Shown piece by piece: positions 38,005 to 56,705 of a stretch of 64,000 nucleotides of DNA; within the stretch, counting starts at the first letter, position 1, and each line of letters starts with the position of its first letter. Below the pieces are notes generated by a model. That model saw only the letters and a list, made by a program, of their open reading frames with translations, ran no database searches and had not been told where the DNA came from. Both the position numbers and the translations under genes were made by a program. The stretch covers positions 10,315 through 74,314 of IMG/VR virus record IMGVR_UViG_3300010282_000006, one strand, 5' to 3'. Source of the DNA: a virus (lineage: Duplodnaviria; Heunggongvirae; Uroviricota; Caudoviricetes).

Positions 38005-38051
38005 GGCTTGTTCCTCCTTCCTCTTGTACCAGAGAAGAGATCCGTCGGGCG

Positions 38052-38429
38052 CTAACCGGCGGGTATGAATTTTTCCTCCACGCGGATCACGCCGGTCGGA
38101 TTGCGGTCGGTCAGACGTTGCTCAAAATAGCGCAGGCATTCGCTGAGAATGACGCCGCGCTGGAATGCGTTGAGGTCGTCCAAGTCGATTGCCTGAGCGG
38201 TTTCGTCCGTCAGATCGTAACGGTCTGCCACCGTGTCGTCCTCCGGCCTACCATAGACCGTATAAACGGCGCGGAAGCCCTGCGTTCCGCTGAACATGGC
38301 GGCGGCCTGCTCGTCCGAAAGTTTGTAAAGCCTTTGGAAATAGGCGTGGTCGTCAATGGTAAACTGAACTACTCTCACTCCACGCCCATCTCCTTCGCAA
38401 AATTGTCGATCTGTTCCGCCGTCAACCAC
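38052..38429 (-). CDS. hypothetical protein
   Basis: 125 aa. Confidence 0.4.
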   Translation of the reverse strand: MVDGGTDRQFCEGDGRGVRVVQFTIDDHAYFQRLYKLSDEQAAAMFSGTQGFRAVYTVYGRPEDDTVADRYDLTDETAQAIDLDDLNAFQRGVILSECLRYFEQRLTDRNPTGVIRVEEKFIPAG

Positions 38430-38950
38430 TCCGGCTTTTCCGGCAGAATCGCGTAGACCGCACGCATCAGCTCGATCTGCGTCTTTTCATCGTGCGTCCA
38501 GAGATGCTTCGTGTGCCGGCTGCGTCCGTCGTTGCCGAGGAAGTAGCTGCAATCAGAACGGAGACGGTCGAGAAACATGTAGTAGAAGCGCGAGCTGTAT
38601 GAGGTGATGTCGAAACGCCGCAGGACGGCCACCGCATCTTCGTACTCGCGCGCTCTGAGGTTCCGGCAAAGCTGCGCATCGCGCAAGCCTTCGCGCATCC
38701 ATTCCAGCCAGTCCGCCGCATCCACGGGCGGACGCAAATTGTAGGCGACGACACAGATCGCGCCGTAGGTCGCACCGATGTTGTTGACACCGTAGTCGCC
38801 GAAGTCCGGCAGCGCAGCGCCGCACTCGCGGGCAAATCGCTGGCAGCCCTCTTTTCCGCCGTAAAACATCCCATCCGTGCAGAGATGAGCGGCAGCGCGC
38901 GCTGTGGTGGACATCCAGTTATTGAATCTCTCGGAAATATTCTGTTCCAT
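38375..38950 (-). CDS. hypothetical protein (start trimmed)
   Basis: 191 aa. Confidence 0.4.
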   Translation of the reverse strand: MEQNISERFNNWMSTTARAAAHLCTDGMFYGGKEGCQRFARECGAALPDFGDYGVNNIGATYGAICVVAYNLRPPVDAADWLEWMREGLRDAQLCRNLRAREYEDAVAVLRRFDITSYSSRFYYMFLDRLRSDCSYFLGNDGRSRHTKHLWTHDEKTQIELMRAVYAILPEKPEWLTAEQIDNFAKEMGVE

Positions 38951-38954
38951 TTTT

Positions 38955-39245
38955 TTACTCCTTTCCCTCATAGCGGAACGCATACGGTGTGCCGACGCGG
39001 TACGGATAGAGACAAAACCAGTCGTCGCCGTCGATGTTCAAGGCGTGCTTGCTTCCGTCCTTCCGAATGACCACGCGCGGAGACTCGCGGAAGAGCTCGT
39101 CGAGCTGCGGCGCGTTGTACCGGCAGGCGTTTTCCAGCAGCGTGATGATGAACGACGCACTCGTCTCTTTCATTTTGACTTTTACGAAGCCTCCAAAAAT
39201 ACCGGGTTCGTCGCTTTCCCATTTGTAGATGCCGGTTTTTAGCAT
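38955..39245 (-). CDS. hypothetical protein (start trimmed)
   Basis: 96 aa. Confidence 0.4.
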   Translation of the reverse strand: MLKTGIYKWESDEPGIFGGFVKVKMKETSASFIITLLENACRYNAPQLDELFRESPRVVIRKDGSKHALNIDGDDWFCLYPYRVGTPYAFRYEGKE

Positions 39246-39329
39246 AATGTTTCCTCCTTCGATTTTGCGCTTCTTACGCCCATATAAGAGAAAAAGGAGC
39301 GCAAGTGCTAACCTGCGCTCCAAATTTTC

Positions 39330-41273
39330 TTACGCGGTGAGGAGAGGCATAGTCGATGCGGGGGAGATGATGTAGTTCTGCGGCGCGCGCATGACCTCCT
39401 CGTACTCCTCGCGGCCTTGGAACTCATCGACCACGGCGCGGGATTCCGCGTCCATATCGTTGTAGTGCTTCTTTCCATAATCCGGCGGGAGCCACTGGCG
39501 GCTGCGCGCTGCAAAGATGTTGAGGCGGTCAATCAGGCGCTTCGCGTCGTCGTCAAACTTGATGTGGCAGGTTCCCTTCTTGTAGAACGTGGCGGTGAAG
39601 TATTTGAAGTTCATCGTCGTGCGCTGGCACTGTTCCGCAACATGCGCCACGGTGTAGGGGTCGATGGAGGAGCCGGTTTCGCCGCGATCCAGATAGTTCA
39701 AAGCGCGTTCGATGTCCGCGATTTTGCCGGAGAACTCGCGCGCTTCCAATTTCTTCTTGCCGTCATATTTCGTGTAGAATCCGTTGATGGGGAGAATGAC
39801 CTTCATACCGACCTTGTGCGCCTTATTCGTCGCCCACCCACTATAGTAGTGGATGTTCTTGGCGCATTCCGGATACCATGCGTGTTCGGCGGACAGCTCA
39901 TCGAAGAGCTTGTAGATCGCATCCTCCACGCCACGCGAGAGACGCGCGGAGATTTCCAGCATGACCTGCTGAATGTTGTAACGCGAGAAGTCGTAGTCCT
40001 TCATCTCGCTGATTTTGTTGTAATACTCATTATGGAGATCGGAGGTCATCTTTTCCGTCAGTTCGCGGCGGGAAAGCAGCAGATTCCAATACCTTGAGCG
40101 CAAACCGCGCAGATAGGAGTTGATCGTGTCGCTCGTCGCATGGTCGCACTTGTGGTCGTTCACGGAGAGCTGGATGAGCGGCTGGCTGTAAGTATCGGAG
40201 CCGTTCATAATGTACGGCGCAAGCGCGTTATACTCGCGCATGAGAGCGACGCCGGCCTTTGCCTCCATGTTGTAGCCGGAAACAAGCTGATCCATCCAGT
40301 CACCGGCGACCAGATCGGTGACTCCTGCGCTGCGTTCCTCCTCCATCTCAGCGGCGCGTTTGAGACCTTCCAGAATGTTCGACTTACGTTCCGGCTCCGG
40401 AATCCTCAGATAGACGATTGCGACCTCGACGTCGCTCTGACGCTCGGCATGTGAGAAAGCACCGGAAACAAACTCAATCTTGGCCTCGTAACGGGCGAGT
40501 TGCTCCTGCAGCACCTTCCGTCGCTGCGTGTACGGGTTGCGGATGGTCTCTGCATTGAGCAGAGATACGATTTGTCCGCCCGCGTCCTTCTGCATGGAGA
40601 TCGCCTTGAGTAGGTGTTCGTCTCCATTGGAAAACGGCGGATTCATCAGGATCACGTCGTAGTGCTTCATGGTGAAGTAGGTGAGAAAGTCGTCCGACAC
40701 GACACGATAGCCCTTGCCTTTGAGGATCATCTGAAGATTGGCGTCGCGTTCGATGCAGTCCACTCGTTCCATAAAGAAATCGTCCCGATAGTTCCCGTGC
40801 TTGTGGTTGAAGCACTTGAGCGCACAGGAAATCAAGTCGCCCTTTCCGGCGGACGGTTCCAACATTGTATCCGCGTACCGCCAGTCGATCAGATTGACCA
40901 TGCGACCGGCAAGCGCCGTCGGTGTCGGAAAAAACTCTGCATCAGGGGAGGCTGGAAGTGCTCGGACATCCGCGTGCAGCACTTCTGCTCTGTGCTCTGC
41001 ATACCAGTCAGCGAAAATTCTCTTGCCCTCTGCGACGGTTTTGCAGCGACCGATGGGGTTTGTGCGAAAATAGTTGCCGGTGCGCTCGGTGTAGTATTCC
41101 ACATCCATCGGCTTATCCTTATTCCAATGCTCGACCGCAGGCGTGCCGTCCATATAGAAGATCCCGCGAATCACGCCGACCGGCTGCGCGTCCTTGTGGA
41201 TGATGACGCTGCGCTGATAGGCCGGTTTCTCCCATCTGGTACAGCGCTCGGTTTTTTCGGTGTAGTAAAACAT
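39330..41273 (-). CDS. N6-adenine DNA methyltransferase, gamma-class (FPTP motif X, EPSAGKG motif I, NPPF motif IV) with ~400-aa C-terminal domain of unknown function
   Basis: 648 aa after trimming to RBS-preceded MFYYTEK. Confidence 0.75.
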   Translation of the reverse strand: MFYYTEKTERCTRWEKPAYQRSVIIHKDAQPVGVIRGIFYMDGTPAVEHWNKDKPMDVEYYTERTGNYFRTNPIGRCKTVAEGKRIFADWYAEHRAEVLHADVRALPASPDAEFFPTPTALAGRMVNLIDWRYADTMLEPSAGKGDLISCALKCFNHKHGNYRDDFFMERVDCIERDANLQMILKGKGYRVVSDDFLTYFTMKHYDVILMNPPFSNGDEHLLKAISMQKDAGGQIVSLLNAETIRNPYTQRRKVLQEQLARYEAKIEFVSGAFSHAERQSDVEVAIVYLRIPEPERKSNILEGLKRAAEMEEERSAGVTDLVAGDWMDQLVSGYNMEAKAGVALMREYNALAPYIMNGSDTYSQPLIQLSVNDHKCDHATSDTINSYLRGLRSRYWNLLLSRRELTEKMTSDLHNEYYNKISEMKDYDFSRYNIQQVMLEISARLSRGVEDAIYKLFDELSAEHAWYPECAKNIHYYSGWATNKAHKVGMKVILPINGFYTKYDGKKKLEAREFSGKIADIERALNYLDRGETGSSIDPYTVAHVAEQCQRTTMNFKYFTATFYKKGTCHIKFDDDAKRLIDRLNIFAARSRQWLPPDYGKKHYNDMDAESRAVVDEFQGREEYEEVMRAPQNYIISPASTMPLLTA

Positions 41274-41552
41274 TCCGTTCCTCCTTTTCAAATTTGCTGC
41301 TTGCACTCTTACCAGAGAACGATTTGTGAATTTGCTAACTGAACAAAAAAAGACGCCGGATTGCTCCGGCGTCTCACAATTTACAGCAGCTCTACACAGG
41401 TCAGATAGTCATATTCGTCTCCATCAACGGATACGGTGTCGCCGCTCTCAAAGAGGTTTTGCAGCCACTCGTCGTATGCCTCCGGGCTTCCGGCGTTCCA
41501 GCGCTTTTCGTCCAGCCACTCACGGAGCGCGCGGACGCTGGAGAACGTGTAG

Positions 41553-41891
41553 TTAAACACAGCCGTCAGCCTCCGTCATCTTGTGGTAGGTGTGCTCCTG
41601 CGGCTCGTCGTCAAACGTGACGTGCAGCGTACAGCCGTGCATATTCGAGCCGAACCAGTTGTTGAGAAACAGCGTCGCAACATTGACCAGATTGCGCCGC
41701 GCGTAACGGTTGTCGAGAAGCTGCGCAAGATCGGGTCGTCCGTCGAACTTGACGCTGACATACTCGCCGCTTCCATAATGCGGCTTGTTGGGATCGGGGT
41801 CGAGTCGGGTGAAGGTGAGCTTTTGGGTGAAGCTCTTGCCATCGCAGACGCCGGAAACCTCGGCGACGATCATACGCGGATTCTTTTCCAT
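41553..41891 (-). CDS. hypothetical protein
   Basis: 112 aa. Confidence 0.4.
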   Translation of the reverse strand: MEKNPRMIVAEVSGVCDGKSFTQKLTFTRLDPDPNKPHYGSGEYVSVKFDGRPDLAQLLDNRYARRNLVNVATLFLNNWFGSNMHGCTLHVTFDDEPQEHTYHKMTEADGCV

Positions 41892-41906
41892 ATTGCGCTC
41901 CTTTCG

Positions 41907-42539
41907 TTAGTTGGCAAGCACCAAGATCGAAGAGTCAAGAGTCAAAAACGGGCGAACGCCGCTGCTGCAGCCGCAGCCATACCAGTTCAGAATGCCATCG
42001 GAGTTGACGAAGCAGACGAGGCGAGCGTAACCGTTACTAGGCGTGGATGCGGGCGTGATTGTCCACCACCAGCTTTCATAGCTGCTGTTCAGTCCGAGCG
42101 TCTTGTGGTACTTCGCATACTCGGCGGCGGTGAGCAGGCTGACGGAATCCGCACACTTCCCATAGTCATCGAGGCCATCCAGCGACGTCAAATCACGCTC
42201 CATCGAGATAATGTTCTCGACGCCGACGATTGCTGAGAGCTTCCGGAAATACTCGTCGTTCAGCTTGTCGCGGATGGGGGATTCCCTCCAGTCGGAGCAG
42301 TCGCCGAACTCCTCGCCGCTGTACGGGAAGCCCTCGGAGATGACGCGCGTGCCGTTCTCGGTCTGTTCCAGCACGATGAACGTCTCGTCGCCGATGGAGA
42401 AGGTCTCGCCGGGTGAGAGGGTGGAAAGCGGCACCTTGCGCTCTTCAAGCAGCGGCGCGAGCGCTGCGGCATCCGACACCTCGATGATGAGCTTGTTGCC
42501 CTCGACAGTCACGACGCTCTTGTCAAATTCCAGTTTCAT
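41907..42539 (-). CDS. DGR target protein 2 (remote), paralog of target 1
   Basis: 210 aa; C-terminal ...WWWTITPASTPSNGYARLVCFVNSDGILNWYGCGCSSGVRPF encoded by VR2. Confidence 0.8.
   Translation of the reverse strand: MKLEFDKSVVTVEGNKLIIEVSDAAALAPLLEERKVPLSTLSPGETFSIGDETFIVLEQTENGTRVISEGFPYSGEEFGDCSDWRESPIRDKLNDEYFRKLSAIVGVENIISMERDLTSLDGLDDYGKCADSVSLLTAAEYAKYHKTLGLNSSYESWWWTITPASTPSNGYARLVCFVNSDGILNWYGCGCSSGVRPFLTLDSSILVLAN
41947..42026 (-). repeat. DGR variable region VR2
   Basis: 12 mismatches to TR over 80 nt, all at TR adenines. Confidence 0.8.
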
Positions 42540-42622
42540 GTAATGTTGTCCTCCTTTTCTGTCGTTGTGTTGTTACATGAGAAGAGCGGGCGGCATTGCT
42601 AACCGCCCGCTCCGTTTTCCCG

Positions 42623-43558
42623 TTACACCTTGGCAGCGAGCAGCTCCGCCATCTTGTCCATCATGGCGTGGCCGTCCATGATCCTGCCCCAGTTGTTCTC
42701 GCGGTAGTTCGCCGTCTGACGGCGCGGCGCGTTGTGGGATACCATATCGCTCATGGCGTTGATCGCACCCCACGCCGTTCCACGGAACTTGATGAGATCG
42801 GGCGCGAACCAGCAGACCATGTACTCGTCCTTGATCGCCTTGACGTTGTTCTTCTCACGGTCGCTCGCGTCCTCCTTGAGCGGGAACATCTCAGAGAGAA
42901 TCTTCTGAATCTCATCCTCGCTGACGTTCGTGTTGGCGAGCTGATCGGCGTAGACGCCGAGCCGCTCCATATACTTGCCGGCCATGTCGAGGCAGCGATG
43001 CGCCTCCGCGAGCTTCATCTGAAGGTCGCCGGTGTGACGCGCCGCCCACGTCCGCTTTGCGCCGTGCAGGGCAAGGTTGAGCGTGTTGTTGCAGACCACG
43101 CGAATCGGCGTCATGCAGACGCGAATCGCTCCGCCGCCGTCGTGGGAGTTGGTGAAGCACAGGTACGGCTCCGTCTTGTCGCCGACGATCTCCGTGTCGG
43201 GGAGCTTTGCCAGCAGCCAGATCTTCCGGCCTCCGCTCAGGCTGCCCGCCGTCTCATAGCGGACGTCGCCGCCGATGAGATTGTCCGTGAACGCGAAGGC
43301 GTCCGCATTCTGACAGACCTTGTAGCGGTCGGAAACGACGCCCAAGACCGTGCCGTCCGAGGAGCGGACGTTCGCCTTGAAGCCCGGAATCTTGCTGCCG
43401 CCGCAGACCTGCATCTCCTTCTGATTGACATTCCAGTCGAGACCGGCCAGCCTGAGCGCGTCCGCGCTCGTCGGGGCCTCGGCGACCTCCGTGCCGAGAC
43501 CGTGCCACGGCTTCTCACGAACGTACATCATGGTTTCCACATTAGCAGACATTTTCAA
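42623..43558 (-). CDS. hypothetical protein (possibly DUF932-type phage/plasmid protein; recollection only)
   Basis: 311 aa. Confidence 0.4.
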   Translation of the reverse strand: MKMSANVETMMYVREKPWHGLGTEVAEAPTSADALRLAGLDWNVNQKEMQVCGGSKIPGFKANVRSSDGTVLGVVSDRYKVCQNADAFAFTDNLIGGDVRYETAGSLSGGRKIWLLAKLPDTEIVGDKTEPYLCFTNSHDGGGAIRVCMTPIRVVCNNTLNLALHGAKRTWAARHTGDLQMKLAEAHRCLDMAGKYMERLGVYADQLANTNVSEDEIQKILSEMFPLKEDASDREKNNVKAIKDEYMVCWFAPDLIKFRGTAWGAINAMSDMVSHNAPRRQTANYRENNWGRIMDGHAMMDKMAELLAAKV

Positions 43559-43628
43559 GTCCTCCTTATATTTTGTTTGTTGTTGGTTTGTTGCTTACAC
43601 TCTTACAAGAGAACGGATGTGGGATTTG

Positions 43629-43898
43629 CTAACCGAGTGTTGATTTTTTCTCGTCCGGCATATCAACGCTTTCCGCGATGACCTCTTCCCAGCTCGTGAT
43701 GATCTGGTTCCAGTGCTCGATTGCCTTCTCCCGCGTGGGACTGCCGCGCAGATTGAAGCGGCCTTCGTCGCAGCGAGAACACACAACGCGCCACGCCGTC
43801 ATTTTCCCTTTGCCGAGAAATCCGAATTTGAGCGATATGAACGATTCCAAACGCGGCGCAGCGCCACAATAACAGCGCTTCATATCAATCTGCCCCAT
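43629..43898 (-). CDS. Lar-family restriction-alleviation-like zinc-finger protein
   Basis: CYCG...CSRCDEG...EKAIEHWN pattern. Confidence 0.45.
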   Translation of the reverse strand: MGQIDMKRCYCGAAPRLESFISLKFGFLGKGKMTAWRVVCSRCDEGRFNLRGSPTREKAIEHWNQIITSWEEVIAESVDMPDEKKSTLG

Positions 43899-43901
43899 CG
43901 C

Positions 43902-44147
43902 TTACTCATCCCACAGAGAATCCCGATAAAGGAAGATCGCCGTCAGGCTCATCTCGACGTCGGACGCCGCTCCGGTTTCGTCGGTTTCGCCGTTGACATT
44001 TTCAATCACGACGGTTCCGTTATCGCGGTCGATGCTTTTTACCGTTCCTGAGTTGATGCCGCCGCCTTTGGTGTCAGAGAAAAGAATGTAATCCCCAACA
44101 GTAAGCAAATTGATTGCCTCCGCCTGATGCTCATACGGATAAACCAT
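43902..44147 (-). CDS. hypothetical protein
   Basis: 81 aa. Confidence 0.35.
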   Translation of the reverse strand: MVYPYEHQAEAINLLTVGDYILFSDTKGGGINSGTVKSIDRDNGTVVIENVNGETDETGAASDVEMSLTAIFLYRDSLWDE

Positions 44148-44150
44148 TGT

Positions 44151-44582
44151 TCAGTCCTCCCTGCAAAGTTCTTCGACCTCTGCGCGCTTCCAGCCGTTTT
44201 CGTCGCAGACCTGCCAGTCATCTTCCGTGAAGTCGGCCAGTCCGACGCTGCTCTCATAGTCCATGATGGCATAGGGAAGTCCCTCGTCACGCCACATCCA
44301 GTTTAGCTCGCCATAGGCGTTGAAGTAATTCTCCTTCGCCTGCGCGATACGGTTGCGGAGCGTGAACGCGGTGTCCAAGACAATGCGCTGCACCGTCCAG
44401 TCCGCTCCAAGCGTCGCCGTACCTCTCCGGTCGAACTCGTCGCGAACTTCGACGGTGTAAATCGGGTTCCCTGCTCCGTCCGTCAGGTTTTGCTTCATGT
44501 CTGCGGTGTTGAATTTGTAGAGTCTTCCGTCGTGCGAAAAGAGCACTTCGAGATCGTTGATTCCTTTTGTGATTTCCGTCAT
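44151..44582 (-). CDS. hypothetical protein
   Basis: 143 aa. Confidence 0.4.
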   Translation of the reverse strand: MTEITKGINDLEVLFSHDGRLYKFNTADMKQNLTDGAGNPIYTVEVRDEFDRRGTATLGADWTVQRIVLDTAFTLRNRIAQAKENYFNAYGELNWMWRDEGLPYAIMDYESSVGLADFTEDDWQVCDENGWKRAEVEELCRED

Positions 44583-44627
44583 TTGATGTCACCTCCTGTT
44601 GATATATGAGACGTTTTCTGTGATTTG

Positions 44628-45077
44628 CTAACCTCTCTCGCGCGTCTTCCAGATGTTTTCCACGGAGAAGCTGTAACGGATGAAGTCGTCCACCAGACTG
44701 ACGACCACAAAGTCCGCGAGTTTCAGCGCTTCCGCCAGAAGTCTCGCCTCGGCCTTGTTCATCGTCGTGATCGCCTTGACGTCCAGCCGGATTGTGGCAT
44801 TCCGTTCCTCGCGCACAGGCTCGCTCTCCGTTATCTGATGCGCTTCGGCACAGACAGACATCAAATCCGTTACGGCGTCCTTGAGCGCGGCGTACCGGCG
44901 CAGCTTGTCCGTATCGACGTCCTTGCCGCAAAAATTCTCGTTGAGATCGTAAAGAACGCCGATTTCCTTCGACGTCAACTCGTTAATGGGCTTGCGGCGA
45001 AGCTCCTGCTCATAGGCAAGCTCCGCCTCGGCCTGTTCCGCCTCCCGTTCCGCGCGATATTTAATAAAATCTACCAT
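44628..45077 (-). CDS. hypothetical protein
   Basis: 149 aa. Confidence 0.4.
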   Translation of the reverse strand: MVDFIKYRAEREAEQAEAELAYEQELRRKPINELTSKEIGVLYDLNENFCGKDVDTDKLRRYAALKDAVTDLMSVCAEAHQITESEPVREERNATIRLDVKAITTMNKAEARLLAEALKLADFVVVSLVDDFIRYSFSVENIWKTRERG

Positions 45078-45141
45078 TTTGCCTCCTTATTCCACATCCC
45101 ACTGACAGATATAGTATCGCGTTGGATAAGCTGATACCTCC

Positions 45142-45597
45142 TCACCAAATTTTCTCCCATGCCGGATCGCTGGCGATTGCGTTGATTTCGCGATCTTGCC
45201 GTGCGACGTCATCCAGCTCTCCTTCGTCTGGAAAAGCCGACACATCCAGATCGTAAACATCGCATCCGACGCGCTCGCCGTCCGTATAGACGCTTTGCAC
45301 CATGCCGCCTTCGACGCAAATGGCAACAGAGACGCAGGGCAATTCGATTTCGCACTCCTCGATCATCCAACCCTTTTCATCTCCGTAATCCTTGATTTTC
45401 GCCACACCCGTATCTTCCAGCCCATAACAGTTGTGGTCGTCCGTCTGTTCGCTCGTATCGAAATTCCACAGCCGCAGCGTCTCCTCGTAGTCGGCGCGCA
45501 GCGCCTCACGCGCGGCTTCCTTGGTTGTGAACGATTTGCAGGATGCAAGAATCTCGCATTCCACGCAGCCGGCACAAATCAGATTGTAGATTTTCAT
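45142..45597 (-). CDS. hypothetical acidic Cys-containing protein
   Basis: 151 aa. Confidence 0.4.
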   Translation of the reverse strand: MKIYNLICAGCVECEILASCKSFTTKEAAREALRADYEETLRLWNFDTSEQTDDHNCYGLEDTGVAKIKDYGDEKGWMIEECEIELPCVSVAICVEGGMVQSVYTDGERVGCDVYDLDVSAFPDEGELDDVARQDREINAIASDPAWEKIW

Positions 45598-45860: not shown

Positions 45861-45901
45861 GGATATAAGAGAACGATTCGCCGATTTGCTAACCGCTTAA
45901 T

Positions 45902-45930: not shown

Positions 45931-45946
45931 CAAAATGCTGTCGATT

Positions 45947-47562: not shown

Positions 47563-47651
47563 AGCTCACAGCCTCCGTTTTCAGATTGACCTTGCGGCCA
47601 TCTATACAAGAGAAAGAAAACGCCGGCTGCTAACCGGCGCTTCCAAAATAT

Positions 47652-47993: not shown

Positions 47994-48040
47994 GGTGTTA
48001 CCTCCTTTTCACATATACCAGAGAAGAAAAGAGACCGGTG

Positions 48041-48283
48041 CTAACCGGTCTCTGAAAAATTCTCGTTGCCTGCGTCATGCCCCAGCTCGTAGACCTCATA
48101 CGCCGCGCGTTCCAGCCGGTCGATCGTGTTGGTCGCATACGGCTCCGCCTCTTTCAGTGCATCCGCCTCGGCCGTCAGCACCTCGTTGACAAAGGCGAAC
48201 GCCTCCTCGACGTCGCTGTCCAGCACCAGTAGCGTGCTGTGTTTTTTGACGATCTTGTTAAACTGCTCCTTGGAAAGAACCAT
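48041..48283 (-). CDS. hypothetical protein (start trimmed)
   Basis: 80 aa. Confidence 0.35.
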   Translation of the reverse strand: MVLSKEQFNKIVKKHSTLLVLDSDVEEAFAFVNEVLTAEADALKEAEPYATNTIDRLERAAYEVYELGHDAGNENFSETG

Positions 48284-48926: not shown

Positions 48927-49031
48927 GATGAAGTCCTCCTTTCAGGCTTCTGTCTCTATATCAGAACTATTCCACGATTTGCTAACCGCTAAATAAAAAA
49001 AGCGGCGGAGTGATCCGCCGCTCCTGTTCCG

Positions 49032-49472
49032 CTATCCGTAAACCAGCTCTCCGAAAAGCGCATACTGGACGATCATGTCCGCCATCTCCGCGTCGATCTC
49101 GCCCGTGTCAATCTTGCCGGTTTTCAGATCGACTGCACCGTACACATCGCCGCCGTTCTGAATCCACAGCTTGATGCCGGACAGCAGCTTTTCCAGATTG
49201 AGAAGCCAGCCCTCGCCGTCGTCCTCGTCCTCTGCGTCGAAAAAGCGGATAGACTTCATGGTGGACGGGCGTGCGCTGTCGCAGTCCAGCAGTATCTTCG
49301 CCGCCGTGGTCTCCACCGGCTCATCCTCCGGTGCATTTTCAAACGCGCTCGTCGTGTTGTCCAGACACGCCCAATAGCCGATTCCGCCTTCCAGCGCGGC
49401 GCTGAGAATGTCCTTGACGTCCTCGTCCGTCAGCGTGACGGTCGCCTCGATTTTGATTTTATATTCGTTCAT
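49032..49472 (-). CDS. hypothetical protein (start trimmed)
   Basis: 146 aa. Confidence 0.4.
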   Translation of the reverse strand: MNEYKIKIEATVTLTDEDVKDILSAALEGGIGYWACLDNTTSAFENAPEDEPVETTAAKILLDCDSARPSTMKSIRFFDAEDEDDGEGWLLNLEKLLSGIKLWIQNGGDVYGAVDLKTGKIDTGEIDAEMADMIVQYALFGELVYG

Positions 49473-49609
49473 GGGAAACCTCCTCGCTTTAAGTACATAT
49501 ATTAGAGAAGCATGTGTATATTTGCTAACCGTTCCGATTTTGAATATGCAAAAAAATAGAGCGGGGAAGACCGACCACCACGACGGCCTTCCCCTAAAAA
49601 AGAGATACC

Positions 49610-50044
49610 TTATTTTTCGTGCCAGAAGACAGGCGCAATGTAGTATCCGTCGTGATACAGCGCACCGCTCCATCCGTTCAGCCTGTCAAACAAAAACTCA
49701 AAAAGAACATGCCACACACCGCAATCCGTTTGAACAGTGAATAAACGGAAATCCGTGTCGATCTCGACAGACAACACCTCGCGCGTCTCCGTTCCATCCG
49801 AAATGAGCACGGGCACGCCCTTGGCCTTGTGAAGTGCGATTTCGCGGAAAATCTGATGGACGTCGCTTGTCGCATCCGCTCCCTCTTTGCGGAAATGCTC
49901 CGCCAGATAGACGGCGCTGAGGGCGTGTTCCTTGTTGTCATCGTCCGCCGTGATGATTCCGCCGTCCTCCATGTAGTCCAGCACGGGGTAGAATTTTCCG
50001 GCGGTGAAATACTCGCCGTCTGTGATTGCCTGATAGTATTGCAT
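49610..50044 (-). CDS. hypothetical protein (start trimmed)
   Basis: 144 aa. Confidence 0.4.
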   Translation of the reverse strand: MQYYQAITDGEYFTAGKFYPVLDYMEDGGIITADDDNKEHALSAVYLAEHFRKEGADATSDVHQIFREIALHKAKGVPVLISDGTETREVLSVEIDTDFRLFTVQTDCGVWHVLFEFLFDRLNGWSGALYHDGYYIAPVFWHEK

Positions 50045-50113
50045 GATCGTCAACCCCTTCCATACATACAAGAGAAACCGGCGTGATTTTGCTAACCACG
50101 CCGGTAAATTTTT

Positions 50114-50317
50114 TCAGTTGATCGCAATGCGCTTGTCGCCGTGTTCCAGCGCGTTTTTCAGCTTCTCGCCGATGATCGTCAACTGCTCATAGCGCAGGTG
50201 AGACAGTCCGCGCTCGACCTGATTGGACGCGCGGCGGCTGTTGTTGTCGTAGTGTTGGCCGGTCATCTTCACGACCTCCGCGAGCCATTGCAGCTCTGCC
50301 TTGCTCAGATGTTCCAT
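50114..50317 (-). CDS. hypothetical protein
   Basis: 67 aa. Confidence 0.35.
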   Translation of the reverse strand: MEHLSKAELQWLAEVVKMTGQHYDNNSRRASNQVERGLSHLRYEQLTIIGEKLKNALEHGDKRIAIN

Positions 50318-50319
50318 TT

Positions 50320-50619
50320 TCAGACCTCCATGCCTCTCGCAAATTTCTCCTGGTCGATGATGCAGGTGATCGCGCTCATGGCGTCCATGTACTGCATCGA
50401 CTTGTCGCGCTCGCCCAGATGATCGCAGCGGTCGCTCATCTGATTATAGATTATGACCACCATGTCGCGGACGTTGTTCAGCTCGATAGGCGTTCTGCTT
50501 TCCAGTTCCAGAATGCGCCTGATCGTCTCCGCCTCCTCAGCATTCACGATGCCGCGCTGTGCGGGCGTATAGGCGTTGTTCAACTCAAGGATGGATTGAA
50601 AATCTGTTTTTGTCGTCAT
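50320..50619 (-). CDS. hypothetical protein
   Basis: 99 aa. Confidence 0.4.
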   Translation of the reverse strand: MTTKTDFQSILELNNAYTPAQRGIVNAEEAETIRRILELESRTPIELNNVRDMVVIIYNQMSDRCDHLGERDKSMQYMDAMSAITCIIDQEKFARGMEV

Positions 50620-50674
50620 ATCGAAGCACCTCCCACAGATACTTGAGATTGTTTTCCGGTCTTGCTAACCACTG

Positions 50675-50914
50675 TTACTGAAAAATCGGCCAGTCCGATT
50701 CGCCTGAGAAATCAAACGCTCCTTCTGCGTCCTTGCGCGTCCACTCTTCAACCAAAATCACCTCGGATTCGCGCAGCTTTTGCATATCCTCGGCAACAAA
50801 TGCTGCAGCCTCGTCCAATGTTGGTTCCCGCAGCGCCTTGATTATCATGGAATATCCGCTACTGAAACAGACCTCGAAGTATTTGATTTTCTTATCCATA
50901 TCGCTATCCTCCAA
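50675..50914 (-). CDS. hypothetical protein
   Basis: 79 aa. Confidence 0.35.
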   Translation of the reverse strand: MEDSDMDKKIKYFEVCFSSGYSMIIKALREPTLDEAAAFVAEDMQKLRESEVILVEEWTRKDAEGAFDFSGESDWPIFQ

Positions 50915-51247
50915 TCAATATTCACCCGGCCACCGTTCCACGATACCGGGATGCCAGCGGTAAAGTCCGATTGCCTCGCACTGTGCGTCGAAGTTGTTCG
51001 GAAAGTTGACCGCGCTCGGCACGACGGTCGTTCCGTCCGGCAGCTCTACCGGCTTGCTATATCCACCGAGGTCGTGGATGCACTCGTCCAGCGTGTCGAA
51101 AAGACGGTCAACCAGCCGCGCTCCGTTGTAGATCGCCACGCAGCTACGCAGCGGGCTCGTGCTCAGGTTCCGAACGCCGCGCCGCTCGTCGTACTCTCGG
51201 ACGACCATGCCTCGTGCAGTAAATTCAGGATAGTATTTCATGTTCAT
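50915..51247 (-). CDS. hypothetical protein (start trimmed)
   Basis: 110 aa. Confidence 0.4.
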   Translation of the reverse strand: MNMKYYPEFTARGMVVREYDERRGVRNLSTSPLRSCVAIYNGARLVDRLFDTLDECIHDLGGYSKPVELPDGTTVVPSAVNFPNNFDAQCEAIGLYRWHPGIVERWPGEY

Positions 51248-51282
51248 CGCCTCCATCCATACATGAGAACGGTTCCGCGATT

Positions 51283-51316
51283 TGCTAACCGCTGAAAAAA
51301 CTTTTTTGCGCGTCGC
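51283..51316 (-). promoter_or_regulatory. upstream motif 2 (minus-strand sense GGTTAGCAAA-N16-18-TCAT/TTAT-ATAT...GGAGG-ATG), representative copy; sigma70-like -35 TTAGCA / -10 TATAT-type
   Basis: one of 22 copies between 38.0 and 56.7 kb, each in front of a small minus-strand gene. Confidence 0.5.
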
Positions 51317-51380
51317 AGTTGGCTTTCCAATGCCTCCGTGCAAAAAGAAGAACGGCGGGCGATTTGCCCGCCGTGTTCCG

Positions 51381-51812
51381 TTACGCCTGCACGCAGCGGC
51401 GAAATCCGTCGCGCTCGCGCTCTCCCATGTGCCACTCCGCCACGAAATCCCAGCCACGCTGATACTGCGTATAGCGGCGGAAGCTCCGCACGATTGCCAG
51501 CACCGCATTGGGGTCAGCGCCGACCGTTTTGCAAACCAGCCGCAACGTGTCCCATGCACCGTCGCTCTCCGCATCTCTCTTCCAGTAGATGCCAGATTCC
51601 TTGTCCGTCATTGTCCTACCGGCGTACAGGCGGGCAATCTCCAAAAAGCTCCGGCGCGCCTCGATGTACGCCTCAGCAGCCTCCATAACCGCCGCGACGT
51701 CGTACTTGATCGGCTCGTGCTTCGCAGCGCCTTGTTCATTACTCAGATACCCTCCGCCAAATGCTACACAGTTATCCATCACGCGCGACCATACTCCCCA
51801 ACTTGCCGCCAT
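51381..51812 (-). CDS. hypothetical protein (start trimmed)
   Basis: 143 aa. Confidence 0.4.
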   Translation of the reverse strand: MAASWGVWSRVMDNCVAFGGGYLSNEQGAAKHEPIKYDVAAVMEAAEAYIEARRSFLEIARLYAGRTMTDKESGIYWKRDAESDGAWDTLRLVCKTVGADPNAVLAIVRSFRRYTQYQRGWDFVAEWHMGERERDGFRRCVQA

Positions 51813-51945
51813 TGTTTTGTACCTCCGTTCTGGATTTTTGGATTTCCTGTTGATACAAGAGAGTATTTTCCGCATTTGCTAACCTGCTCCCAAAAAAATT
51901 GCGGCGGACAGAAATGTCCGCCGCTCGTCTGTTCCGTCTGTTCCG

Positions 51946-52758
51946 TCAATAGTCCTCGCCGAGTCCGGCGTGGTATCTCCTGCGCGCCTCGAAGTATGCG
52001 CGGCGCTGGACGTCGTTGAATCCAAGGTCGTCGAAGTAGCACGCCAGATTCTCCTGTTCCCCACGCCAGCGGACGCGGCCAAATGCGCCGAGCGTATCAT
52101 AATCCGCCTGCCAGTTGATGTGATACTCGTGATTCGCCATCTCCCGGACGAAAGCGTCCACCCAATACTCGAAATTCTCGCTGTTTCCATCCTTCGCCGC
52201 CACCAGCGCCGCATAGAGCTGATCCTGATGGTCGCGGAAATCCTTGTCGGCGTAGTAGCAGAAGGAAACCTCGCTGTAATAGGGATAATTCCCCTTCAGC
52301 CGGTCAAAGACGCTCTGCTCCTTGATGTGCGTGACCGTCGCTCCGCTGTAGTCGATTCCAAAAATGGACAGGTGATCGACGCGCAGCGGGTAGAGGTCGC
52401 GCAGAAAACGCTCACGGCGCTGAAATTCGTCGTACTCCGCCAGCGGCGCGGTCAGCTCCTCCTCCGTGAAAAGCGTCTGGCGCAGCTTTTCCTCGTACAG
52501 CGCGCGCAGCTCCTCGTGCGTCTTCTCGTGCTGATCTTCGTCCCAGCGCGTCGGACGGTGGTGCAGCTCGTAGTCGTTCGCGTACCCGATCTGATGCCCA
52601 TTGAAAAAGACCAGCGCGCTGTATCCGAAGTGTCCGCCGAAGTCGATGAACAGGACGTCGTGCTCCTTGATGACCGTCGTGTCCTCCGCCAGCTCAAACG
52701 CGGCGTCCTCGTCCAGCGCCTCAATGTCTGTGATCGTCCAGTTTTTCGTCTGTTCCAT
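51946..52758 (-). CDS. hypothetical acidic protein
   Basis: 270 aa. Confidence 0.4.
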   Translation of the reverse strand: MEQTKNWTITDIEALDEDAAFELAEDTTVIKEHDVLFIDFGGHFGYSALVFFNGHQIGYANDYELHHRPTRWDEDQHEKTHEELRALYEEKLRQTLFTEEELTAPLAEYDEFQRRERFLRDLYPLRVDHLSIFGIDYSGATVTHIKEQSVFDRLKGNYPYYSEVSFCYYADKDFRDHQDQLYAALVAAKDGNSENFEYWVDAFVREMANHEYHINWQADYDTLGAFGRVRWRGEQENLACYFDDLGFNDVQRRAYFEARRRYHAGLGEDY

Positions 52759-52886
52759 GTTGTGCTCCCTTCCGGCCTGCGGCCTTGTTCTGTGAATACT
52801 TGAGAATGATTTTCTGTTCTGCTAACCAAACGGCTGAATTTTTCCAAAAAAAAGAGACGGACATTGCTGCCCGCCTCCGCGTTCCG

Positions 52887-53378
52887 TCACGCGCTGATCT
52901 TGTCCCGCTTGCCGTCCGTGTTGACGACCTCGCTCCCGTAATAGCCCCGGATGTCGTCCATCGAAAGGTTCCGACTGCTCCGCTTTTTGTAACCGTCGCG
53001 GTGGAAATACCACGCGCTTTTGTTGCTGCTCCACCGGAAGGACAGCGCCTTCAGCTCGTCCTTGTGCGGCTTCGTGTCGCCCGTCACCCACAGCCACGAG
53101 CCGCAGACCTCGATCGTGATTCCCTCCATGTGAATCAGCTTTTCAATGACGTCCATGAACTCCGCCGCCGTCTCCGTCGTCGCCGTGCGGCTCGTGTAAA
53201 ATTCGCCGTCCTTGTTCTGGTGGACGTCCTTGAGGCGCGCAAAGAGCTTTTCATACTCCGCGTTGATCTGCTGCATATCCACCGTGCTTCCGCCCATGTC
53301 GGGATGGTGCTTCATGGCGAGGCGCTTGTACTGCTTCTTCAGCTCTTCCAGCGTCTTCGGATTATCAAACCACTTCAT
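52887..53378 (-). CDS. J-domain (DnaJ-like) protein
   Basis: HPD tripeptide in KKQYKRLAMKHHPDMGGS near N-terminus (start trimmed). Confidence 0.65.
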   Translation of the reverse strand: MKWFDNPKTLEELKKQYKRLAMKHHPDMGGSTVDMQQINAEYEKLFARLKDVHQNKDGEFYTSRTATTETAAEFMDVIEKLIHMEGITIEVCGSWLWVTGDTKPHKDELKALSFRWSSNKSAWYFHRDGYKKRSSRNLSMDDIRGYYGSEVVNTDGKRDKISA

Positions 53379-53503
53379 CGTCGTGTCCTCCAAAAAATCA
53401 GATTTGGAATCTTCCATCCATATATGAGAACAGTTCCGGCGTTTGCTAACCGTTCCAAAAAATAAAAAATCCGGGAAGTTTCCCTCCCGGATTTTCCACC
53501 GAT

Positions 53504-53719
53504 TCAAACAGTCGGCACATAATCAAAATAGCCGATGCGCTCGAAGATTTCCAGCGCGCCGTGCGCGGCCTGTTTCGGCATGTCCGCAGCCCACATAAGC
53601 GGGAAGCGTAAATTGTCCATGTCGCAGACCTGAACGTGCGCCCTGTCCTCGTGAAAATCCGCCCTCATGCGGTACTGGCCGTATGTCTTTTCCATCGTGC
53701 AAAGCGGCGTGTTATACAT
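53504..53719 (-). CDS. hypothetical protein
   Basis: 71 aa. Confidence 0.35.
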   Translation of the reverse strand: MYNTPLCTMEKTYGQYRMRADFHEDRAHVQVCDMDNLRFPLMWAADMPKQAAHGALEIFERIGYFDYVPTV

Positions 53720-53892
53720 GGTTTCGCCCTCCGTTCCAAAAGTCGGTTTGTTCCTCCCGCTGATATATTAGAGCGTTTTCCGCGCCTGCTAACCGGTTTC
53801 AAAAAATATTTTCTTGTTCCATTTCGCGCGAAACATGAGAAGTGGCGGCGAAACAAAAAAAAGCGGCGGGATTGCTCCCGCCGCCCGTTCTG

Positions 53893-54114
53893 CTACTCTG
53901 CGTGAAACTCTCTTGTCGGCTGAATCGTAAATGGTACGCAAGAAACGATTTCGTCCAGCGCATCCTGCTCTTCATCCGACAAGACGCCTGTTCCATAACA
54001 TATTGCGACCTCCACGTCCTTTGTGTCGCTGAAAATGTTGATGATTTTGCCGTTTACAATGTCGATTGCAATTCTCATATTCAAATCCTCCGTTCCGTTT
54101 TTGTGATTCCTCAC
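53893..54114 (-). CDS. hypothetical protein
   Basis: 73 aa. Confidence 0.35.
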   Translation of the reverse strand: MRNHKNGTEDLNMRIAIDIVNGKIINIFSDTKDVEVAICYGTGVLSDEEQDALDEIVSCVPFTIQPTREFHAE

Positions 54115-54230
54115 ACTGTTATATGAGAAAGAATGCAGCGCTTGCTAACCAGTCTGCAAAAAAAATCAGTCGTTCCAAAAAAAATCGAAAGAGGCGGAGC
54201 GATCAAGCTCCGCCCGTTCCGTTACAGGGA

Positions 54231-54533
54231 TTATGCGGCCTGCTTCGGTTCGTAAACCGTTTTGTAATACTCCGGCAGCGTCATCCACCGGCCTTCCGGC
54301 GAGCGTTCCCACGCCCACATCTCATCGAAGAACGCCTGCAGGTGCTTCGGCTGTTTTGCCGCCAGATCGACGTCCCGCAGCTCGTCGCTGTCCAGGCAGC
54401 CGGACGCCTGAAGCTCCGGGTAGGTTCCAGCTTTGCGGTATCCGTTCATCTTCGCCACCCACAGCGATTCGTTCACGACCTGTTCCAAACTCAACATTTC
54501 GTTCCCTCCGTTCCAAGCTCCGCGGCCGCGCAA
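54231..54533 (-). CDS. hypothetical protein
   Basis: 100 aa. Confidence 0.4.
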   Translation of the reverse strand: MRGRGAWNGGNEMLSLEQVVNESLWVAKMNGYRKAGTYPELQASGCLDSDELRDVDLAAKQPKHLQAFFDEMWAWERSPEGRWMTLPEYYKTVYEPKQAA

Positions 54534-54611
54534 GCGCGCGCCGTCGTCTCATCCATTCCGTCGTCCAGCAGCATTTCCAGCAGCTCGTTATAGCTCATCG
54601 TGTTGCCCTCT

Positions 54612-54794
54612 TCAGTCCACGACCTCAATGTCGGTCAGCTCGTAGTATTCCAGCAGTTCCAGCGCGTTTGTGTAATCGCCGAAGTCGTAAAGCTCTTCCG
54701 CCTGCTCGATCATTTCGCAGTAGGTCAGCAGCTCGCCGGTCTCCAGATTCATGTAGTAGCGCCTGCGCGGGAAGGTATTCCTCATCGTGTTCAT
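54612..54794 (-). CDS. hypothetical protein
   Basis: 60 aa. Confidence 0.3.
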   Translation of the reverse strand: MNTMRNTFPRRRYYMNLETGELLTYCEMIEQAEELYDFGDYTNALELLEYYELTDIEVVD

Positions 54795-55236
54795 GTGTTC
54801 CAGCCTCCACTATTTTAACTCGCGTCGTCCGGTGGTCTCCGCAGCTTTTGCCGCAGTCCGTCGCGCGATTCTCACCTATACTTGAGAACGTTCTGCTGTT
54901 CTGCTAACCGGCAGCAAAGAAAATTTTCCAGCCGTTCCAAAATCTGAGCCGTTCCAGCGCCAGCCCAGCAGCACCAGCACCGGCGCAAAAAAGGCGGAGC
55001 CGCAAAAGCTCCGCCCTGTTCCGTCATCGCCGCGTCAGCGCTTCGGATTATCCAGCCATTCCACAAACCGCATAATCAGCTCCACCACCCTGAACGCGCC
55101 GACCGTTACCACGATGTAATACAGTGCGCCGTACTCCATGCCGTTTTACCTCCCCTAATCGTTTCATTCGTTCCGCCAGACGTTCCACCGGCAGCGCGGC
55201 CAGCCATTCCAGAAGCCAGCCGCGCGCCGCGTTCCG

Positions 55237-55599
55237 TCAAATGAAATACATTTCCCCGTTGAGCTCCAAGGCGACAGCCTCCTGCCCCATGTCCGCCTTC
55301 AGCCGCTCGCAATGCTCGACAACTTCGCCGATGTGCTCCTGCAGATCCGCGTCGCTCGCGTAGGCGAAAACGACCGTTGTATTTTCCGCGACCAGACCGG
55401 CCGCAGGGCTGAGCCAGTAACCCAGCGCCGGCGTGCTCGTCGCCCCACCGAAGAGCCGCGACAGCAGCGCCGCCGTCGCCTTGACCTGTTCCGTATTGTC
55501 CACGGCCTGATCGACCGCAGCCGTCGCCGGAACGTAGACCGTTATCTTGCTGGACAGCTTGAAGCACCGCTGCAGCTTCGCATTGTTGATCGTCATGGT
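55237..55599 (-). CDS. hypothetical protein (start trimmed)
   Basis: 120 aa. Confidence 0.4.
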   Translation of the reverse strand, partial: TMTINNAKLQRCFKLSSKITVYVPATAAVDQAVDNTEQVKATAALLSRLFGGATSTPALGYWLSPAAGLVAENTTVVFAYASDADLQEHIGEVVEHCERLKADMGQEAVALELNGEMYFI

Positions 55600-55699
55600 G
55601 GTATCTCCTTTTCCGTTTTGAAGTAGGGGCGAGCGGATGCCCGCCCCTCGCATACATGAGATTAGATTATTGGCTTGCTAACCGTTCCGAAAAATTTTC

Positions 55700-56503
55700 T
55701 TACATGTGCAGCGCCGTCAACTGCTCGCGCAGCTTCACAATACGCTTGTGCACGGCGACGTTGGAGATCGTTCCGATGTCCTGTGCAATCTCGCGTTCCG
55801 TGTATCCGCGCCCGACAAGCTCCAAAATCCTGTTGTTGATTTCGTCGCAGCCGTCCCGGAAGTCCTCCATATCTGCCTTGAGGATAGCGGCGCGTTCCGT
55901 GTCGTCTTCGCTCGCGCAAATCGTTTCGACCGCGCTGCAGGTCTCCCCGTCTTCCGTTTCCAGCTCGCGCACGCTCGCCGCGCTGTGCTTGCTGTCCTGA
56001 TAGAAAACCGCTGCAACGCTCGCGTCGGCAGCCTCATAGACCAGCTTGACCAGCTCAAGCGGGCGCTTGCCCTGAGCCGCGCGGCGCTCGTTTCGCTTCG
56101 TCAGCTTGTCGGCGTCGAGCTTGACCGCCAGCCGCAGCCACGTTTCTGAAACGAACTCGTCAAGATCGTGCAGCCCGTACAGGCCGAACGCGGGCACCTC
56201 GGAGAACTGCAAATCGTGGTCTTCGGTGCTGTACTTGATGCGGTCTTTCGCGGCTTTGTGGATGCACTTCTTCATGAATGCGACCTGCTCGCCCTCAGAC
56301 AGGGCAGCCCACGCGGAGACGACGCGCGCCGCGTTCGCGCCAGCGTTCGCGCCTTCGGTCTCTGCCCACGCAATACGCAGGCAGGCGGAGAAGAGGACTT
56401 CAGAGACCTTGCAGCCGATTTCAGAGGCAGCCGCGCGGCGAATGTCCCACGCGCGGAGCATAACGGCGGACTTGTTGGTGGTGTTGGTGGTGGTGGTTTT
56501 CAT
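55700..56503 (-). CDS. sigma-70-like protein (C-terminal region-4 HTH TEREIAQDIGTISNVAVHKRIVKLR); first gene of the leftward array
   Basis: 267 aa; HTH shared with 26843..28444. Confidence 0.45.
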   Translation of the reverse strand: MKTTTTNTTNKSAVMLRAWDIRRAAASEIGCKVSEVLFSACLRIAWAETEGANAGANAARVVSAWAALSEGEQVAFMKKCIHKAAKDRIKYSTEDHDLQFSEVPAFGLYGLHDLDEFVSETWLRLAVKLDADKLTKRNERRAAQGKRPLELVKLVYEAADASVAAVFYQDSKHSAASVRELETEDGETCSAVETICASEDDTERAAILKADMEDFRDGCDEINNRILELVGRGYTEREIAQDIGTISNVAVHKRIVKLREQLTALHM

Positions 56504-56602
56504 GGTGGTATCTCCTTTACAAAATAGATTTTTGTCGCCATATCGGAAGAGCCGGAGCGGAGCCGGAGCCGAAGCCCCGAAGCGCCCCGCGCGCCCCTCT
56601 TG

Positions 56603-56631
56603 AGCTACCTATATTGTACCACGGTCAACCC
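56603..56631 (-). promoter_or_regulatory. canonical sigma70 promoter (TTGCAA-17-TACAAT) heading the leftward gene array
   Basis: hexamers read on minus strand. Confidence 0.5.
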
Positions 56632-56705
56632 TATATTGCAACAGATTTTTGTCTTGCTAACCTCAGAACGGTATAAATTTTTGTCGTTCAAAATTGTGCA
56701 AAATA

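Follow-up and report, generated by a model that had tools for sequence, protein, structure and literature searches.

The 64,000-nt stretch of viral DNA analysed here, comprising positions 10,315 to 74,314 of the IMG/VR record IMGVR_UViG_3300010282_000006 (Caudoviricetes) and hereafter called the window, harbours an array of 22 copies of a two-part element that opens with a GGTTAGCA box and lies before short units of minus-strand genes, the first of which encodes a 267-aa sigma-like protein (Table 1). According to the explanation favoured here, to which a little better than an even chance is given, the 22 elements would constitute a phage-specific (delayed-early) promoter class read by the 267-aa protein on the host core polymerase. 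The sites are interpreted as promoters because of their strand, their position, their two-box geometry, the adjoining A/T tract, the terminators and their conservation in relatives. A phage factor is proposed as their reader because the sigma-like gene heads the array, because it alone has a host-type promoter and because the box changes together with the recognition helix. Reading of the motif by a phage factor rather than by the housekeeping sigma has good comparative support, and the activity of the sites as promoters, the position of the start and the binding of the 267-aa protein to the box and to the host core polymerase are predicted from the sequence.

A total of 20 exact matches of GGTTAGCA were found in the window, all on the minus strand and spanning 39306-56662, against 0.89 expected from shuffled sequences, none of 100 shuffles attaining that count. 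A weight matrix 34 nt wide, built from the GGTTAGCA sites and applied to both strands with a cut-off of 19 bits, recovered exactly 22 sites, namely the 20 exact matches and two one-base variants (AGTTAGCA at 41333-41340 and GGTTAGCG at 38050-38057), while the top score among 20 shuffled windows was 14.4. All of them lay on the minus strand inside 38026-56662, the motif thus being restricted to a single 18.6-kb block. The number and the strand given in a preliminary description of the window were thereby confirmed, and its coordinates proved correct to 0-2 nt, apart from a site placed at 54912 that is actually at 54902. With genes called by a model of codon usage and ribosome-binding sites, all 22 sites were intergenic or ran at most 5 nt into the end of the gene before them, and, intergenic sequence making up only 13% of the region, such a placement had a P-value of ~5e−20. 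Equal frequency of the motif inside coding regions, the doubt raised in that description, was therefore not observed. In four units (38052, 43629, 44628 and 48041), the TAG within GGTTAGCA doubles as the stop codon of the upstream gene, which shows an extreme packing of coding and regulatory sequence.

Alignment of the sites revealed a bipartite signal of invariant spacing, GGTTAGCA-N14-TCTCWTRTAT, with the consensus cGGTTAGCAaa-N12-tTCTC(A/T)T(G/A)TAT and a spacer that was not conserved. Moreover, a tract of an A-run and a T-run resembling an UP element was found 9-17 nt 5′ of the motif, and a purine-pyrimidine-purine-G sequence was kept at positions 34-37, positions being counted from the first G of the GGTTAGCA box. 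The block holds ~41 genes for its 22 motifs, so that each motif heads a unit of one to three genes, with 18-128 nt from the second box to the minus-strand start codon and downstream genes of 60-647 codons. These values replace the single motif per gene, the distance of 5-30 nt to the gene start and the gene lengths of 60-300 codons of the earlier account, which had also placed the two-part element at every site; at 56662, the second box is missing and a host-type promoter takes its place.

The position of the transcription start was approached through 204 sites of the family, at which a ribosome-binding site with its open reading frame (ORF) almost never began before position 36, and began at exactly 36 in 38 cases. 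Because of these positions, of the conserved bases at 34-37 and of a hairpin in the leader of the second array gene that begins at position 35, transcription would probably start at positions 34-37, so that GGTTAGCA would span about −37 to −27 and TCT(C/G) about −14 to −9. In promoters of extracytoplasmic function (ECF) sigma factors, ~14-16 nt separate the −35 box from a short −10 box, and transcription begins ~34-36 nt from the first base; the predicted geometry appears to match that of sigma-dependent promoters, of the ECF type in particular. A −10 element on TATAT or TATAAT was rejected, as the start would then land inside the ribosome-binding site. The hairpin of the second gene (55625-55648, minus strand) is stable, with a dG of −22 kcal/mol and z = −2.95, stands at the very start of the leader and could stabilise the 5′ end of the mRNA; GC-rich, hairpin-like sequences were seen at the matching place in relatives. 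For the GC-rich leader of the sigma-like gene, folding was no better than that of shuffled sequences (z = −0.2).

A scan of 37.5-57.4 kb for the sigma-70 consensus returned eight promoters against 8.8 expected, i.e. no enrichment, and 0 of the 22 motif sites were among these eight matches. In the best register, the hexamer at positions 24-29 reads T(C/G)nnnT, which does not combine the A at its position 2 with the T at its position 6 that a housekeeping −10 element has, and the G or C found where the critical −11 adenine is expected (TTAGCA-N16-T(G/C)nnnT) would argue against the host housekeeping sigma. The sigma70-like −35/−10 pair with a TATAT −10, as first proposed for these sites, was accordingly given up, TATAT probably not being the −10. 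The housekeeping holoenzyme would nevertheless be involved if the 267-aa protein were an activator that attaches to GGTTAGCA near −30 and, in the manner of MotA/AsiA at T4 middle promoters, brings this enzyme to promoters without a usable −35 or alters it there. Such a role is rather unlikely; it agrees with a helix-turn-helix being the only securely identified part of the protein, with a box centred near −30, and with a second box that in many relatives includes TG and A/T-rich hexamers (TCTGTAATTATA) and in clade B a perfect TATAAT. However, half of the window sites have G at the would-be −11 and no T at −7, a sigma-A −10 on TATA(A/G)T would move the start within or past the ribosome-binding site, and the middle domain of the protein and its NCBIfam match point to a region-2-like domain. 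Compared with T4 MotA-type promoters, the box near −30 was present, but no TAnnnT register with a start upstream of the ribosome-binding site was found, and neither MotA nor AsiA domains were seen among the proteins scanned.

Approximately 15 of the 22 motifs follow or overlap a hairpin resembling an intrinsic terminator on the gene strand, as found by a terminator scan and our own hairpin search, in line with the frequent upstream terminators already reported in the preliminary description. There were 12 strong minus-strand terminators, five of which enclose the GGTTAGCA box (sites 50097, 48046, 47635, 42604 and 39313), and at these five hairpins the T-rich start of the second box is also the terminator tail. 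Since no more than 5 of 22 sites have this arrangement, display of the box in a hairpin loop is not regarded as a requirement, and these hairpins are read as overlapping terminators. As in PeSL cassettes, a terminator stem-loop joined to a putative promoter recurs among small variable genes, the block counting 22 units over 18.6 kb. Furthermore, blocks of homology between the window and its relatives often end within ~60 nt of a motif. These block ends may reflect an exchange of cassettes at promoters common to the phages, like that reported for the PeSLs of T4. The same starts and ends of homology near the motifs would be expected if the repeats were recombination sites or cassette boundaries only, with no transcription signal; this is hardly credible, since their strict co-orientation with the genes, their fixed distance to ribosome-binding sites and their bipartite structure suit a promoter, and cassette exchange would then be a by-product, as in the T4 case.

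The sigma-like protein was compared with several family and structure collections. Only one Pfam family scored above threshold, Phage_Gp111 at the N terminus, while Sigma70_r4_2 matched the C terminus of 13 of 22 family members, weakly. The NCBIfam family sigma70-ECF (TIGR02937) was the best for the three members tested, with 17-22.5 bits against a cutoff of 42.9, and its match in the member P0024 covered residues 106-260, i.e. both sigma domains. A PDB sequence profile search gave weak helix-turn-helix matches only, and profile comparison with an approximate E. coli RpoE sequence aligned the helix-turn-helix alone, with low probability. In the fold, sigma region 4 was clear and a region-2-like part weaker, the best structural and NCBIfam similarity being to ECF (group 4) sigma factors. 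Region 4 is thus taken as established, and region 2 as plausible but not secure. Besides Phage_Gp111, residues 9-64 gave sub-threshold matches to the anti-CRISPR AcrIIA3 (E 0.004-0.016), a similarity that is probably not meaningful.

Two phage sigma-like proteins had been suggested as readers in the preliminary description; comparative support was found for the 267-aa protein, and the other, of 533 aa, shares with it only a helix-turn-helix segment, located at residues ~190-255. Among 5.8 billion proteins, just two homologs of the 533-aa protein were found, and because both are without the segment, it looks like an inserted copy of the module, captured within one phage. Together with the restriction of the similarity to 41 aa, this led to the rejection of the 533-aa protein as another sigma factor.

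Homologs of the 267-aa protein numbered >240, on ~80-140 kb contigs classed as viral by IMG/VR and in Oscillospiraceae prophages, some of them in cultured bacteria (Dysosmobacter segnis and Hominicoprocola fusiformis). The layout of gene plus array recurred on more than 40 related contigs. In particular, every clade-A relative with sequence past the gene (37-90% protein identity) had 8-20 same-strand GGTTAGCA copies per 10 kb directly downstream, with 0-2 copies upstream of the gene and 0-1 on the other strand; for one 125-kb relative contig the motif mapping was partial, two pieces being unplaced. The first box was invariant across lineages, except for one lineage with AGTTAGCA. The second box, at constant spacing, differed by lineage, reading TCTCWTRTAT in the window, TCTGTTATAT in its nearest relatives and TCTGTAAT(T/A)ATAGTAG in most lineages, with yet another version in a 37%-identical relative. 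The pattern GGTTAGCA-N14-TCTGTAAT matched 96 viral contig stretches, the matches of each contig all lying on one strand. In the relatives examined, apart from locus L024, what stands before the homologous gene is a TTGACr-N17-TAwrAT promoter of the canonical type rather than the array motif. No matches were obtained among GenBank phages, either by DNA search with the array or by protein search with the sigma-like protein, and in the literature the motif string matched primer sequences only, with nothing relevant on sigma factors or promoter motifs of Oscillospiraceae prophages.

The best-conserved part of the sigma-like protein was the recognition helix, (I/T)SNVAVHKRIVK. A sister clade (~38% identity) carries the helix ISEPAVCKRLKKIR and no GGTTAGCA array; after its gene, 4-5 same-strand copies of GGTTAATT-N20-rGTrTAAyAG were found behind terminators and just before ribosome-binding sites. 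This joint change of box and helix would be the strongest available link between the 267-aa protein and the motif. It also bears on an alternative sigma of the host, such as a sporulation or ECF sigma of the Oscillospiraceae, as the reader. The geometry is similar to that generally known for ECF promoters, and the CATATAT/CATGTAT of the window loosely recalls sporulation −10 elements; however, the second box varies between close phages and the first box between clades, in step with the phage protein and not with the host, and the motif is limited to one 18.6-kb phage block, which leaves a host alternative sigma very improbable.

In the relatives' loci (L009-L046), the opposite arm, ~8 kb from the sigma-like gene, encodes a ~940-aa YonO-like protein with an ADFDSD motif and distant similarity to phage proteins that carry the annotation RNA-dependent RNA polymerase. 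A YonV_C protein is also encoded in the relatives, and a 199-aa sigma in the nearest ones; because of these three genes, the phage group appears to resemble SPbeta in gene content. The motif might accordingly be the promoter of the YonO-like single-chain RNA polymerase, whose gene in relatives lies just beyond the window, with the sigma-like protein maybe acting as its specificity factor. The presence of the gene, with its ADFDSD catalytic motif, on the opposite arm in 23 clade-A loci speaks for this, and conservation up to the predicted start (TATA followed by G/A) recalls promoters of single-subunit polymerases; moreover, whether a promoter-recognition factor is needed was left open in the YonO study (PMC5467207). 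In SPbeta, however, YonO is the polymerase of a single long late operon rather than of numerous short early units (PMC5467207), and it has no flap domain, which is used in hairpin-dependent termination, whereas the array is full of intrinsic terminators. The −35/−10-like geometry and the upstream A/T tract suit the multisubunit host enzyme, and in the 31 kb examined of a phage whose YonO-like gene is 49% identical, both the sigma-like gene and the motif were missing. On balance, a YonO promoter is unlikely.

Several observations weigh against the 267-aa protein as the sigma factor of a private promoter class. In clade A, the linkage of the YonO-like gene to the array is no less consistent than that of the sigma-like gene itself, and the nearest relatives of the window carry the 199-aa sigma as a second, more typical sigma gene. 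No region 2 was detected by Pfam in the 267-aa protein, and all its sequence matches to sigma families were below curated thresholds. Furthermore, the A/T-rich stretch from the second box to the predicted start seems more strongly conserved than is usual for sigma-dependent promoters, and the covariation of box and helix rests on one split between two clades. The 199-aa sigma was rejected as the reader of the motif, being absent within 10 kb in most full-array lineages and from the window.

A second repeat, (T)TAGCn-CGACAATAAT-yTAT, was found on the minus strand in five exact copies plus variants, all intergenic. In the 0-33 kb block, where it precedes replication genes, 2-8 nt separate it from the ribosome-binding site of the gene concerned, and variant copies bracket the host-type promoter and leader of the sigma-like gene. 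Relatives have lineage-specific equivalents at those two places and in the promoter spacer of the second gene. By analogy, the second repeat may be an operator comparable to SPBRE of SPbeta. A related proposal concerns GGTTAGCA itself, which could mainly be the operator of a lysogeny repressor, as SPBRE is for MrpR, with ordinary promoters beside it. In SPbeta, the early promoter regions hold ~10 copies of a 15-bp element bound by the master repressor (PMC10516654), and here an operator-like box with a TTAGC core flanks the promoter of the sigma-like gene. Against this, the invariant spacing of the two boxes across a free spacer points to a single reader that contacts DNA with two of its parts, ordinary promoters were not found at the sites by the consensus scan, and the 22 copies stand one ahead of every array unit. 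As the main function of GGTTAGCA an operator is thus quite improbable, and a repressor-operator role may coexist with the promoter role. A recombinase encoded near the array (57817-58752) matches Phage_integrase and, by eye, keeps the catalytic HxxR, H and Y residues.

If the 267-aa protein is the reader, the events would proceed as follows. Upon infection or induction, the promoter at 56613-56641 would be used by host polymerase carrying the housekeeping sigma, and the sigma-like gene at 55700-56503 would be expressed. The region-4 helix-turn-helix of the product would then bind GGTTAGCA, ~30-37 bp upstream of the start, while its region-2-like middle domain, on the host core, would handle the second box (TCTC/TCTG...). 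In this way, 21 short units of one to three genes would be turned on, with accessory and probable counter-defence functions, and intrinsic terminators would insulate most units from their neighbours.

Table 1. Positions in the window of the array copies, the associated promoter, the second repeat and the two proteins with the shared helix-turn-helix
Feature	Position	Strand	Description
Sigma-like protein, 267 aa	55700..56503	-	N-terminal Phage_Gp111-like helical domain; region-2-like middle; sigma region-4 helix-turn-helix (TEREIAQDIGTISNVAVHKRIVKLRE)
533-aa protein	26843..28444	-	41-aa helix-turn-helix segment with 66% identity to the sigma-like protein; nothing else in common
Canonical sigma-A-type promoter	56613..56641	-	TTGCAA-N17-(TGg)TACAAT; sole strong one in 37.5-57.4 kb; precedes the sigma-like gene
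Copy 1, hybrid	56631..56662	-	GGTTAGCA box with host-type promoter in place of the TCTC box; 26.8 bits; before sigma-like gene 55700-56503
Copy 2	55652..55683	-	before 55237-55596; spacer holds second operator-like box; leader opens with stable hairpin
Copy 3	54878..54909	-	before 54612-54794, then 54491-54598 and 54231-54497
Copy 4	54119..54150	-	before 53893-54078; terminator hairpin 54192-54215 upstream
Copy 5	53763..53794	-	before 53504-53719; terminator 53861-53886 upstream
Copy 6	53420..53451	-	before J-domain protein 52887-53378; upstream terminator hairpin ends 10 nt away
Copy 7	52796..52827	-	before 51946-52758; terminator 52853-52878 upstream
Copy 8	51853..51884	-	before 51381-51812; terminator 51901-51924 upstream
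Copy 9	51259..51290	-	before 50915-51241, then 50675-50899; terminator 51352-51374 upstream
Copy 10	50639..50670	-	before 50320-50619, then 50114-50317
Copy 11	50066..50097	-	before 49610-50044; GGTTAGCA box in loop of terminator hairpin 50077-50105
Copy 12	49499..49530	-	before 49032-49472
Copy 13	48956..48987	-	before 48297-48926, then 48041-48283; terminator 48998-49025 upstream
Copy 14	48015..48046	-	before 47652-47993; box inside terminator hairpin 48030-48053; TAG is the stop of the upstream gene
Copy 15	47604..47635	-	before 47053-47562, then 46542-47027 and 45947-46531; box inside hairpin 47616-47644
Copy 16	45863..45894	-	before 45594-45845, then 45142-45597 and 44628-45077; terminator 45905-45928 upstream
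Copy 17	44602..44633	-	before 44151-44582, then 43902-44147 and 43629-43802
Copy 18	43603..43634	-	before DUF932 protein 42623-43552
Copy 19	42573..42604	-	before DUF6273 protein 41907-42539 (target 2 of a diversity-generating retroelement, DGR, in the preliminary description), then two small genes; box inside hairpin 42583-42612
Copy 20, variant AGTTAGCA	41309..41340	-	before 647-aa protein 39330-41273, an N6-adenine methyltransferase fused to DUF4942; terminator 41350-41375 upstream
Copy 21	39282..39313	-	before 38955-39245, then LPD11 protein 38375-38950 and 38052-38378; box inside hairpin 39296-39321
Copy 22, variant GGTTAGCG	38026..38057	-	weakest, 19.5 bits; before 37627-38004 and the genes after it
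Second repeat sites	6899-6908, 15766-15775, 20647-20656, 25620-25629, 25684-25693, 32938-32947, 56528-56537, 56677-56686	-	

The genes of the array look like an accessory or counter-defence module. One of them, a DUF6273 protein (41907-42539), resembles the target protein encoded beside a reverse transcriptase elsewhere in the window. The reverse transcriptase gene (28995-30017) lies near that DUF6273 gene (30614-31225), and the second DUF6273 gene, 11 kb off, stands inside the array with its own motif, an arrangement consistent with a DGR with a remote second target. Upstream of the sigma-like gene, ~56740-57300 is a GC-rich, repetitive and apparently non-coding stretch of ~600 bp, whose equivalent in relatives is annotated as low-complexity ORFs (321 aa in L009 and 224 aa in L013). 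On the plus strand, amid minus-strand genes, a pair encoding an XRE-type repressor and an ImmA/IrrE-type metallopeptidase (34652-35759) is likely a lysogeny switch module. Finally, two tRNA genes were found (28664-28750, minus strand; 63309-63382, plus strand), and an Rfam search found nothing else.

The phage strategy of a sigma-like protein with repeated private promoters is already known, and what is new here is the motif, the host group and the unannotated sigma-like family. For the widespread and unstudied temperate gut phages of Oscillospiraceae (~80-140 kb), the array amounts to a regulon map, with a likely master early gene, its probable target, 21 units and their terminators. Knowing the switch would help to forecast when the methyltransferase, DUF932, LPD11, J-domain and DGR-target-like genes are expressed, and the compact, conserved promoter-terminator cassette could serve as a genetic part for Clostridia without tools. 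Moreover, related prophages are present in the cultured strains Dysosmobacter segnis BX15 and Hominicoprocola fusiformis CLA-AA-H269, which makes the prediction testable. A wider proposal, to which only a low probability is assigned, is that the 267-aa proteins form an unrecognised sigma family, with a Gp111-like N terminus, a degenerate region 2 and a region 4, widespread in large YonO-encoding gut phages of Oscillospiraceae. Their logic would be two-tiered, a GTTAGC core common to the 22 promoters and the operator-like box giving one specificity to an activator and a competing regulator; in its boldest form, the protein would be the missing specificity factor of YonO.

Among the closest described systems is the sigma cascade of SPO1. 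ECF (group 4) sigma factors have a two-domain architecture of region 2 and region 4, which the 267-aa protein appears to share together with the promoter geometry; in contrast, its −35 box is without the AAC signature, it has an extra N-terminal domain of ~95 aa, its scores fall below thresholds and it has no evident anti-sigma partner. In Salmonella phage 7-11, the late promoters are bipartite (GTAAtg-N16-aCTA) and read by the phage sigma gp47, while those read by gp36 of phiEco32 consist of a single element, tAATGTAtA (PMC8948821). Both systems employ a divergent phage sigma on the host core and a phage-private motif before groups of genes, as is predicted here, and with 7-11 the likeness extends to a bipartite motif of fixed spacing and to a start, predicted in the present case, 6-9 bp after the last element. 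Theirs, however, are 6-8 experimentally mapped promoters of middle or late genes in lytic phages of Gram-negative hosts, whereas the 21-22 copies described here belong to an accessory-gene array of a temperate Clostridia phage, are known from sequence alone and are paired with a protein that carries an additional domain at its N terminus and is not accepted by any curated sigma model.

The T4 middle promoters combine a MotA box at −30 with a sigma-70 −10, together with AsiA (PMC2988021, PMC6755090). They resemble the array in having a box near −30 at a fixed distance from an element in the −10 region and, on the favoured reading, an early phage protein as the switch, and differ in that here the −10 region is unfit for the housekeeping sigma and the putative reader has a sigma-like fold. 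The PeSL cassettes that T4-like phages carry in their hyperplastic regions (PMC2839356, PMC4122927) are also units of a terminator stem-loop and an early promoter between small variable genes, at which the gene content changes between relatives, as it may at the units of the array; their promoters are host sigma-70 early promoters, whereas those of the array would be phage-specific, with the upstream box inside the terminator loop at five sites. Finally, SPbeta with its SPBRE/MrpR system (PMC10516654) likewise represents a lineage of large temperate Firmicutes phages with YonO-like and YonV-like genes and a short element in early promoter regions. As an operator of one 15-bp element, SPBRE is present in ~10 copies and bound by a repressor of recombinase fold, in contrast to the bipartite motif, which has 22 copies and is linked to the sigma-like gene; by analogy, the second box (CGACAATAAT) may be a closer counterpart of SPBRE than the main motif.

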